Made by a program: the position numbers | IMG/VR virus record: IMGVR_UViG_2734482780_000013 | Location: 1-13,028 of that record | Origin: a virus | Taxonomy: Duplodnaviria > Heunggongvirae > Uroviricota > Caudoviricetes | Length of the DNA: 13,028 nt | Strand: one strand, 5' to 3' | In this document: positions 3,001 through 6,000 of the stretch, in pieces | Numbering within the stretch: the first letter of the stretch is position 1 | How the letters are laid out: the number at the start of each line of letters is the position of its first letter

Positions 3001-6000
3001 GGAAGTGCCAAAGCCATCTGAGCTTTAATTTTTGGGTCTGCCAGAAGTCCGGCCAGAGTTGTTGGTTTCTCATTATGATGTGCAACTTGGTTACCGGTAG
3101 CCGCTGCCTTAAGTGCATTGATAGACATTTTTTCTCCTTACTTCATTCTGAAGACGCGTTGTGTCGTTGTTGTTTTGAATTTTTCGAATAACTCAGGGTG
3201 TACTGACTGGAATAGCTTCTGGTCGAATCTGTTGCTGATCTGAGATTTCCATGTGCAGAGCGGCTTTCCGTCCAGGGTCAGGACTGAGTGCTCTTGCATG
3301 TACATCTTCAGCTTCTCTTCTGATATAGCTATTTCTTCTTCCAGTGATTTTCTGCGTGACTTCATGTCTCGTAGATCGTTGAATAGTGCGAGTGCCTTTC
3401 CGTCAGCCTCGATACTTGTCCCGGCCTCTTTCTCAAACATCAGCGATACATCGCTTACGCTGGTAGCTTCCGGCGGGTTAAGATTTTTCACTCGGTCCCA
3501 GAAAGCGATTTCTTTTTCTAAGATCGCCTGGATAGTTTCTTCATCACGCTCAACCCGATAGATTCGGAAGTCGTCGCCACCGATAAGCACACCGAAAACG
3601 CATACCTGTTTGTTTGTAACCATCAACCCGTGCATGGCCTGGGCCGTGTAATGCACAGGAATTGCATCTGTCTGGATTTCTCCCCATTCTTTGGCTTTGA
3701 ACGGACTAACTGTTTTTATCTCAATGTTCTCGCCTGACGCTGCTTCTGCATCGATCTCAGCTGCAATAAAATCGTAATCACGGTGGATATAGCGGTTTCC
3801 GCGATGAACGATTTCCATCCCTGTTTCCTCAGAAAGCAGGTCTATTACGTATGGCTCCATACGCTGGCCACGCGTGAAAACTTTCTGCTTGCTTGGGTCT
3901 ACTGGTTTGACACGTGGCTGGACCTTATCCAGATAAACCTCAAGCGGGGTGCGCCATGGGCTAATTCCAAGAATCCCTGCAACATCGCTTCCTCCGATGT
4001 ATTTTGTTCTATCCATGATTCCAGCGTTCCGCATCATGCCGCGTCCCTCTGCCCATCAAGCTGATCAGCCAGATCCCAGCGGGCGATAATTGCCATTGCC
4101 TCGCGCCGGTAGGCATCCATTAGTTCTTCGAACTCAGGGCTGTCTTTAGCGGCCTCCAGTACTTCCTGGCGAACACCTTTGCCTGTTACAACGTCGAAAG
4201 TTGAGGCCAGTTGATGAAGCCGGATACTCTCAATCAGTTCAACTTGTCGGTCATATAGCTGTTCTGACAGGCGGTAGTCCTTGTCGAATGCCAGCATGAT
4301 TTTTTGAAGATTTTTCTGCTGATTAACGTTCATTATCAGCCCTCCCATATCTCGTTATCGTTGGCCACATCGCGAGCTTCTTTGCTGACGAAAGCCCACT
4401 TAATGCCTTCCTGTAAGGTGCGGAACTTCCAGCTCATGAATCCGCATGCAGTAACGCAGTACCAACCGTTGATGATTTTCCACTGCATAATTTGTTACCT
4501 CGGTCTGTTACCGTTGAGGTAATGATTATGCGTATTTGGTTTGATGTCAATAGATATGAGTTAAAAAAATTACCCGCCAGGTAATCGTATAGGCAATAAA
4601 AAAGCCGCCAGAAGGCGGCTTACTTACTGAAAAATATGATTTTATTGTTTGTTTTTTTCGTTCTGGTTGATGACAAATTCAATGTAACTTTCGATCTTTG
4701 CTTTCTCGGTTTCGGGTAACAATGCGTAGCGCGAGCGGTCATAGTTGATGGTCGCAGGGTCGTGCGGGTGAATCAGTAATTCATAGCCATGACGCCCGAA
4801 TGCGGATGCAACATTCTCCAGGGTGGAAATGGAAACGCTGACCTCATTGTTTAACAGGCGGCTGATTGTCACCTGGGCGACGCCGGATGCGCGGTGAAGT
4901 TTTCCCTGTGTTGAAAGGTCGCGGCTTTCGCTCATCCAGCGTTCCAGGTTGTGAGCCGCCAGCTGACCAATGTCGCTTGGGCCGACAGGCTGAAAACCTT
5001 CCTGAGAAAGCGAGCGATCGATATCAAGCCAGTTACGGGGTTTATTGGCGGCAGCTTCAATTTTTCGCGCAACCTGGTCGCCGATAACCTTCTTGCCAAG
5101 AGCCCAGCGGTTTACCAGATTTGCCTGAGTTCCAAGTTTTTCTGCCATCCGCGTCTGAACACCATTGAATTCACGGTCGATCAAGTCGTTGAGATTTTGC
5201 CTGCGGACGTCCTGGATACTTTTCATTTTCTGGAAAATCGCCTCATATATGAATCAGTAGATGATTCAATTTAAAGCAATATTACCCAACAGGTAAATGC
5301 ACCTCATAGGTAACTACCCTTGATTTTTGTTACCTTATGGGTGAATATTTATTATCTGAAATAAATATCAGGCAATAGCTATGAGCGATAACGGACATTT
5401 CGATTTCAAAAAGCACTGGCTTGCACTCACTCCGGATGAGCGTGAAGCCTTCGCACAGGAAGCCGGAACGACGAGTCACTATATCCAGACTCACTTAACA
5501 GGTAAGCGAAAAATGCCAGGTAAAGTATTGATGAATGGGCTTTTTAAAGCCTGTAAAACAAGACAATGGCTGCGCTCAAAAGCAGAACTGGCATACTTCT
5601 TCTACTCATGATATCCAGCTACAACCCTCTGTAGACCGCCACCCGGCGGTCTTTTCATATCTATTCGTACCTCAAAGGTAATAAAAAACCAAATCTGGTT
5701 GATCTTTTTTTTGTGTCAGCACAAAATAACCGTAATCCCAATACTAATAACAGGGCTTACCATGGAAATCATTACACGTATTGATGCCGCAAAGCGCGGA
5801 CTTAAACGCTACTACACCGGAAAACCATGTAAGCACGGACATGACAGTGAACGCTGGGTTTACAACGGACACTGTGTTGAGTGCACCATGGAATCAAACC
5901 GTCGTATCAGGGCAGAGATTAAGCAGATCATGATTAATTCCTCCCCACAACATTCAAGCTGATAGCGGAGATTAATCATGAGCAGACATGCAACAGATTG

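Follow-up and report, generated by a model that had tools for sequence, protein, structure and literature searches.

The 13,028-nt window analyzed here (the whole stretch, positions 1–13,028 of the IMG/VR virus record IMGVR_UViG_2734482780_000013) carries a prophage remnant in which the tetramer ATGA joins the stop codon of one gene to the start codon of the next at four places. These tetramers very probably are ordinary −4 overlaps in two polycistronic phage transcripts, a pL-type early-left operon and a lysis cassette, whose genes would be translationally coupled through termination and reinitiation. The junction under study, at 4034–4037, links the gene of a 99-aa protein to that of a YqaJ/RecE-like exonuclease. 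A first-pass annotation had listed four such stop/start overlaps, and all four were verified on the coding strand, each joining two real genes. The junctions are:

4034–4037, minus strand: the 99-aa open reading frame (ORF) ends GAC GCG GCA TGA, and the 299-aa YqaJ nuclease opens ATG ATG CGG.
836–839, minus strand: the DGQHR gene ends GCA GAA CAA TGA, and the MT-A70 methyltransferase opens ATG AAA AAA TAC.
192–195, minus strand: the methyltransferase ends CGT GCA GCA TGA, and the 64-aa DUF1382 gene opens ATG AAC AGG.
11256–11259, plus strand: the stop of the GH19 endolysin (10630–11259) overlaps the start of the Rz/DUF2514 i-spanin (11256–11738).

Gene labels at the junctions were checked against Pfam and PHROGs. 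At every one of these sites the tetramer is shared by two genuine ORFs, which makes each an overlapping pair of the −4 ATGA type. At the 99-aa/nuclease junction a second ATG (4032–4034) creates an alternative UGAUG joint of −1 geometry (TGATG at 4032–4036). Over the whole window the tetramer ATGA is not enriched, with 140 occurrences found and 139 expected. The −4 overlaps make up 4 of the 15 co-directional junctions in the window (27%). The binomial P for 4/15 at ATGA is ~0.018 under a lenient null in which the upstream gene ends in A+TGA (p = 0.07), and ~2e-4 for p = 0.02. The occurrence of ATGA at gene junctions is not due to chance, and the signal is confined to gene ends.

Each of the four ATGs is preceded by a Shine-Dalgarno (SD) sequence 6–10 nt upstream, located within the upstream gene as in coupled gene pairs. 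For the ATGA at 4034, the SD is GAGGG at 4045–4049 on the minus strand; it lies within the last codons of the 99-aa gene, 8 nt upstream of the ATG, with a duplex free energy (dG) of −6.3 kcal/mol. GGGAG precedes both the MT-A70 ATG (847–851, minus strand) and the DUF1382 ATG (204–208, minus strand). The three leftward SDs lie 6–9 nt upstream of the ATG, with dG of −6.3 to −7.8 kcal/mol; that of Rz is weaker (AAGG at 11242–11245, plus strand, −4.0 kcal/mol).

Comparison of the junctions in related prophages, which the first-pass annotation had proposed as a check, bears out the overlap of the 99-aa gene with the nuclease gene. The ATGA is kept in 93 of 93 related loci, down to ~50% protein identity. 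The loci comprise 80 from IMG/VR, those of Klebsiella, Citrobacter, Erwinia and epsilon15 (50–55% protein identity), and those of Kluyvera, Salmonella and others. In all of them the 99-aa gene ends in GCA TGA, or in TCA TGA in epsilon15. Among 20 distinct 3′ ends of this gene, the stop is always TGA and the last sense codon, GCA or TCA, always ends in A. The arginine four codons before the stop (4046–4048) is encoded by the rare AGG in 19 of these 20 ends and never by CGN; one variant, found in 5 loci, has Lys AAG in place of the AGG. The conserved AGG is the core of the GAGGG SD. Synonymous sites beside it vary, as GCG/GCA, GAT/GAC, CTG/CTT/CTA/TTG and GGA/GGG/GGT. The retention of TGA, the final A and AGG among varying synonymous sites is direct evidence from the sequence that this joint is constrained at the codon level beyond the protein code.

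In the proposed mechanism, the ribosome that ends at the upstream UGA would already be positioned on the AUG that opens the next gene, and the SD inside the upstream coding sequence would assist reinitiation by the ribosome or the 30S subunit. Alternatively, translation of the upstream gene would at least keep the start site unfolded. The downstream gene would be translated in step with its neighbor, and no intergenic region would be needed. With the SD and the ATGA both lying in the last ~15 nt of the upstream gene, any gene put directly after it would be expressed. Coupling of this kind is known from reporter tests, in which 13 of 14 overlapping pairs, five E. coli pairs included, were strictly coupled (Huber et al. 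2019, PMC6728339). A spacing of ~20 nt is enough to make it collapse, and no more of the upstream gene is needed for it than the last 15 nt (Huber et al. 2023, PMC10666635). By analogy with these pairs, the exonuclease start is probably translationally coupled to the 99-aa gene. The first-pass annotation had described the exonuclease as co-translated with its upstream neighbor; probable coupling is what can be retained of that statement, whereas the term co-translated is not. Since relatives carry any of three unrelated genes behind the 99-aa gene, as described below, coupling here more likely secures the expression of whatever follows than sets a stoichiometry of the 99-aa protein and the exonuclease in a complex.

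Several observations weigh against coupling. Each downstream start has its own SD, and de novo initiation could supply some or all of its translation. The 100-nt windows around the junctions fold no more stably than dinucleotide shuffles (z from −1.4 to +1.6). Other orthologous joints vary in geometry: that between the 50-aa and 99-aa genes is +2, +4, −4 (GTGA) or −11 among relatives, and in diverged phages many different genes follow DGQHR, with joints from −14 to +153 nt. Besides its first ATG, the exonuclease has others in frame at codons 2 and 8, and conservation is lower over the first seven residues than over the rest of the protein. Because the prophage is decayed, the operon may also be rarely expressed in the host. 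A stricter form of coupling, in which an mRNA structure sequesters the downstream starts, found no support, as the folding energies match those of the dinucleotide shuffles.

The repeated overlaps had further been taken as an argument that the small ORFs are genuine rather than annotation noise. The genes are real, but the argument is weak. About 7% of genes would end in A+TGA by chance, and a 38-aa pseudogene in the same operon keeps its ATGA and GTGA ends despite a premature TGA; for both reasons ATGA is poor evidence of a live gene. It is purifying selection, full-length PHROG and Pfam matches, and the spread over enterobacterial genera that argue for the 50-, 99- and 64-aa ORFs as genuine genes. 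The ratio of nonsynonymous to synonymous substitution rates (dN/dS) is 0.05–0.22 for the 99-aa gene, 0.09–0.23 for the 50-aa gene, and 0.2 for the 64-aa DUF1382 gene, where third-position changes are in excess. For all three, the PHROG match is full-length. The 99-aa protein has homologs in Escherichia, Salmonella, Shigella, Citrobacter, Kluyvera, Klebsiella and Erwinia; distant homologs in species-representative genomes come from 3 loci only, too few for independent-lineage statistics.

The start codons at the junctions are similarly well placed. The Pfam model of MT-A70 aligns from residue 4 and the catalytic DPPW occupies residues 10–13, so that no later start is possible. The DUF2514 model aligns with Rz from residue 11, after an N-terminal membrane segment. 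Calls of the Prokaryotic Genome Annotation Pipeline (PGAP) agree with the claimed start codons. Residual doubt is limited to YqaJ, which may start at ATG1, ATG2 or Met8. In practice, the junctions settle where four genes start and, together with the selection tests, the 50-, 99- and 64-aa ORFs merit annotation.

The 99-aa protein was also considered as a partner of the nuclease, for instance a Gam-like inhibitor. This candidate was rejected: there was no structural match and no sequence match in PDB or Pfam, and the three unrelated downstream genes argue against a dedicated YqaJ complex. The AlphaFold2 model of the protein is a helical hairpin of low confidence (predicted local distance difference test 70, predicted template modeling score 0.36). 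Foldseek searches of PDB and BFVD gave nothing below E = 0.8, a PDB profile search reached E ~0.5 at best, and Pfam had no match. A literature search on phiV10/epsilon15 gp36 found nothing relevant.

Overlapping genes need not be coupled, and the overlaps may instead reflect compact packing, with each downstream gene using its own SD independently of upstream translation. All four ATGs do have an SD at normal spacing, the predicted local structures are not unusually stable, and the contribution of the SD varies widely from gene to gene (Huber et al., PMC6728339). Nevertheless, independent initiation is unlikely, given that 13 of the 14 published pairs were strictly coupled in that same study. 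Moreover, it would not need an invariant TGA with its preceding A at ~50% identity, since an ATG a few bases on would serve. It could also be supposed that the −4 overlaps are a neutral by-product of start and stop mutational dynamics combined with deletion bias, without selection for coupling. The ~7% of genes expected to end in A+TGA would agree with this, as would the switching of orthologous joints among +2, +4, −1, −4, −8, −11 and −14; simulations ascribe some of the overlap-length distribution to codon-set redundancy (PMC3887535). However, 22–27% of the co-directional joints in this phage family are exactly −4, and the 99-aa/nuclease joint is invariant in 93 loci with the rare AGG retained as SD. 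In addition, the accessory cassette that carries the DGQHR gene has replaced a resident −8 joint with its own SD and ATGA. These observations make a neutral origin highly unlikely.

Least probable of all is an error in the gene calls, i.e., that the ATG of the ATGA lies upstream of the true start or that the small ORFs are not genes. The extra exonuclease ATGs at codons 2 and 8 and a Pfam YqaJ match beginning at residue 9 are compatible with such an error. Some annotated ATGA overlaps have been flagged as start-codon misannotations (bioRxiv 10.64898/2026.09.10.750558), and the DGQHR Met1 at 1939 probably is such an extension. Against it stand the alignments of MT-A70 from residue 4 with DPPW at 10–13, of DUF1382 over residues 1–60 of 60, and of DUF2514 from residue 11, as well as the dN/dS of 0.05–0.23 for all three small ORFs. 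A DUF3799 nuclease that uses the same ATG in relatives is, furthermore, conserved from residue 1 (MKPGIYF/MTPGIYF). Termination-reinitiation coupling at ordinary −4 overlaps is the explanation that we favor.

The pattern is not specific to this operon: −4 overlaps occur genome-wide in this phage family and in lambda. They account for 12 of the 45 co-directional junctions of phiV10 (27%) and 9 of the 41 of epsilon15 (22%). The 4/15 of the window (27%) represents the family norm rather than something special. In lambda, ATGA is found at bet/exo, exo/orf60a, O/P, P/ren, NinB/NinC, NinC/NinD, NinG/NinH, NinI/Q and R/Rz. The −4 overlap of endolysin and Rz is likewise annotated in phiV10, epsilon15 and GPEC403-625, and corresponds to lambda R/Rz. 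In a set of 2.66 million gene pairs from prokaryotes, no other distance is nearly as frequent as −4 (PMC10666635), and ATGA is the commonest type of unidirectional overlap (bioRxiv 10.64898/2026.09.10.750558). The finding is therefore correct but ordinary; ATGA overlaps and their role in coupling are already known and textbook matter, and no gene junction is more frequent among prokaryotes or within this phage family. No new mechanism is involved, and the practical value lies in annotation.

Of modest evolutionary interest is that the overlap is an exact module boundary for three unrelated genes, with a rare AGG kept as an internal SD. In close relatives, the same ATG, that of the ATGA at 4034, opens a 273-aa DUF3799/PD-(D/E)XK nuclease (most loci), the 299-aa YqaJ, or, where the recombination module is absent, a 68-aa AlpA-like protein. 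Relative to strain GPEC403-625, identity is 94–100% upstream of the ATGA and ~30% directly after it. Relative to epsilon15, Klebsiella and Erwinia, it is 51–68% upstream and 78–87% downstream. The change is abrupt in both directions. BLAST homology to phiV10 resumes exactly at window position 4034. The ATGA at 4034 is a nucleotide-exact mosaic breakpoint. The joint doubles as a module boundary, probably because the SD and the ATGA belong to the upstream gene. The first 8 nt, ATGAAACC, are identical in two of the alternative downstream genes, suggesting that microhomology mediated the joins.

Among the other junctions, that of MT-A70 with DUF1382 has the −4 form in 80/80 close relatives; epsilon15 lacks it and has a different gene there, after a 123-nt gap. 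The DGQHR gene is an AT-rich accessory cassette (window 837–1939, minus strand) present in 5 of 80 close relatives. In relatives without the cassette, the end of PerC and the start of the methyltransferase share 8 nt (ATGACTAA or ATGAATAA). In those with it, the cassette stands directly after the PerC stop and brings its own GGGAG and ATGA. This ATGA replaces the methyltransferase start, by which MTKKY or MNKKY becomes MKKY. The ATGA at 836–839 is conserved in EC21 and GPEC403-625. As to the start of DGQHR, PGAP and phrog_7901, which aligns from residue 13, favor Met13 (1903) rather than 1939, and the 3′ junction is unaffected. The ATG at 1939 is the ancestral methyltransferase start left by the cassette insertion, in frame by accident. 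The 12-codon extension from 1939, if translated, gives an 8-nt overlap with PerC.

Succession of DGQHR by MT-A70 with ATGA or GTGA recurs in several diverged lineages, which hints at a two-gene module of a ParB-like protein and a methyltransferase. Proteins of the DGQHR family (67–77% identity) are found directly upstream of MT-A70 in other phages (L176, L177 and L183). By analogy with ParB-methyltransferase fusions, DGQHR (ParB/DndB-like) and MT-A70 may form a two-subunit DNA-modification module; a literature search on their pairing in phages found nothing relevant. A further reading, independent of this one, is that SD plus ATGA constitutes a portable expression socket that guides module exchange. 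Such sockets would be those at the end of the 99-aa gene and on the DGQHR cassette, where genes may have been joined at their own start codon via microhomology. Recombination, besides selection, may then place breakpoints exactly on the overlap. We hold both the socket and the two-subunit module to be rather doubtful, and the same judgment covers the two.

Tight joints beyond those listed by the first-pass annotation occur in the same operon:

4333–4338, minus strand: TGAtaATG (+2), the joint of the 50-aa gene to the 99-aa gene.
2341–2344, minus strand: relic ATGA at the start of the 38-aa gene.
2228–2231, minus strand: GTGA overlap of the stop of the 38-aa ORF with the GTG start of PerC.
1932–1939, minus strand: 8-nt overlap ATGAATAA, which holds the PerC stop.

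The 38-aa gene has a TGG-to-TGA nonsense mutation at codon 11 in the window (stop at 2312–2314) and is intact in ~165 relatives. PerC, if started at the GTG (2231), may have lost its upstream coupling partner through this mutation. In relatives L250–L253 and L249, extra genes are inserted either between the 50-aa and 99-aa genes (284–325 aa, no Pfam match) or, as an HNH gene, between the nuclease and RecT, with tight joints throughout.

The leftward operon and its upstream neighbor consist of:

4642–5226, minus strand: gene of a repressor-like helix-turn-helix protein (Pfam, PHROGs).
4602–4621, minus strand: intrinsic terminator that follows the repressor gene; phiV10 has one annotated at the corresponding place.
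4522–4550, minus strand: predicted pL-like sigma-70 promoter of the operon (TTGACA, 17-nt spacer, AATCAT; 10/12 consensus matches).
4336–4488, minus strand: 50-aa gene, phrog_898, the first gene of the leftward transcript (PHROG, dN/dS).
4034–4333, minus strand: 99-aa gene, phrog_856 (full-length PHROG match, dN/dS).
3138–4037, minus strand: YqaJ/RecE-like exonuclease, 299 aa (PF09588, 2.7e-23; phrog_434).
2355–3128, minus strand: RecT, truncated to 257 aa from the 340 aa of relatives (Pfam, PHROGs).
2228–2344, minus strand: 38-aa membrane protein pseudogene, homolog of phiV10 p35 and epsilon15 gp32.
1932–2231, minus strand: PerC-family activator gene (Pfam, PHROGs).
836–1903, minus strand: DGQHR/DndB-like gene, 355 aa from Met13, or 367 aa if from 1939 (PF14072, 2.2e-46; phrog_7901).
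192–839, minus strand: MT-A70 family DNA methyltransferase, 215 aa (PF05063 from residue 4; phrog_359).
1–195, minus strand: DUF1382 gene, 64 aa, of the lambda orf63 family (PF07131, residues 1–60 to model 1–60/60, 2e-30).

A consensus scan gave a single strong promoter (4522–4550) and no minus-strand terminator from 4522 to 1, which predicts one transcription unit. The YqaJ exonuclease is 88–90% identical to the copies of epsilon15, Klebsiella and Erwinia, and its gene is separated from that of RecT by 9 nt, within which AGGAG lies.

The element in the window is a phiV10/epsilon15-type (Uetakevirus) prophage. The early-left operon, the immunity region, the tail fibre N-terminus and the lysis cassette match phiV10 and epsilon15 in nucleotides and gene order. 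By BLAST, the left 5.4 kb is 96–98% identical to phiV10-type Escherichia phages, and the YqaJ/RecT recombination module shows ~81% nucleotide identity to Salmonella phage epsilon15. This epsilon15-like module (2363–4033; proteins 90% and 97% identical) is set in a phiV10-like backbone (96–98%). phiV10 itself has a DUF3799 nuclease, annotated as a RecT fusion.

The prophage is a remnant of ~12 kb rather than a complete inducible Uetakevirus genome, the genes for replication, packaging and morphogenesis and the excisionase being gone. At a join at 6085–6090 (region 5978–6124), phiV10 coordinate 33535, inside a dnaT-like replication gene, is linked to 20979, 17 nt upstream of the tail-fibre ATG (window 6102), with 6 bp common to both BLAST alignments. 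This join has cost the element ~26.5 kb, with genes for replication, packaging, head and tail as well as nin-like genes, and an 834-aa ORF mechanically called from 6069 is an artefact of it. A 527-bp deletion at 2363–2368, relative to strain EC21, phiV10 and epsilon15, takes the last 85 residues of RecT (257 aa versus 340) and the entire alpA/xis-like gene. With the excisionase lost and the annealase truncated, the element is probably unable to excise and defective in recombination.

The plus strand carries, in order:

Plus strand: tail fibre/tailspike, acyltransferase, two holin-family genes, GH19 endolysin and Rz/DUF2514; then host genes.

The acyltransferase (Acyl_transf_3, 378 aa, 8645–9781, plus strand) is on the same strand as the tailspike, unlike the O-acetyltransferase of phiV10 (338 aa), which is on the opposite strand. 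From ~6592 to 9862, DNA homology to phiV10 or epsilon15 was not found. The C-terminal part of the tailspike and the acyltransferase may represent a different serotype-conversion or receptor module. Inside Rz, a +1-frame ORF with a lipoprotein signal (LPLALAGC; 11311–11730, plus strand) is the counterpart of the Rz1 o-spanin, which is annotated inside Rz in phiV10, epsilon15 and lambda. Two proteins are encoded in the host flank (11958–13028, minus strand), one of the DUF5384 family (179 aa) and the other a glycine-zipper lipoprotein (171 aa). The flank is matched by almost every E. coli genome; a match to the window exists in 5422 of 5426. The integrase end of the prophage adjoins guaA in relatives (locus L004).

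Compared with known systems, the junctions resemble the coupled pairs of Huber et al. in having ATGA (together with TGATG at 4032–4036), co-directional genes, and an SD within ~15 nt of the upstream gene's end. They differ in that coupling was tested there with reporters and is proposed here from the sequence. Subunits of heteromeric complexes are over-represented among gene pairs with short overlaps, yet the three unrelated partners of the 99-aa gene argue against an obligatory complex with the exonuclease.

The closest relatives are phiV10 (NC_007804) and epsilon15 (NC_004775), which share the 50-aa gene, the 99-aa gene (epsilon15 gp36, phiV10 p38), the recombination module, PerC and MT-A70; DUF1382 is present in phiV10, and the same −4 joints are annotated in both phages. 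The window differs from them in the extra DGQHR cassette, the epsilon15-type YqaJ/RecT in a phiV10-type backbone, the loss of alpA/xis and the RecT C-terminus, the nonsense mutation of the 38-aa gene, and the ~26.5 kb that is gone.

The likeness extends to lambda, where ATGA also joins recombination genes of the pL operon and links endolysin to Rz, and where orf63 is annotated as DUF1382, the family of the 64-aa gene. However, the gene families and their order are not the same. Lambda has the annealase before the exonuclease, with Gam upstream and a 5-nt gap in between, whereas in the window the 99-aa gene overlaps the nuclease gene, and YqaJ and RecT are 9 nt apart.

Temperate phages evolve in a modular manner and show mosaic module boundaries at gene borders. 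As at such boundaries, homology breaks at a gene border in the window and non-homologous cassettes share a slot. What differs is that the breakpoint of the window can be located with single-nucleotide precision, at the start codon that the alternative genes share in the ATGA.

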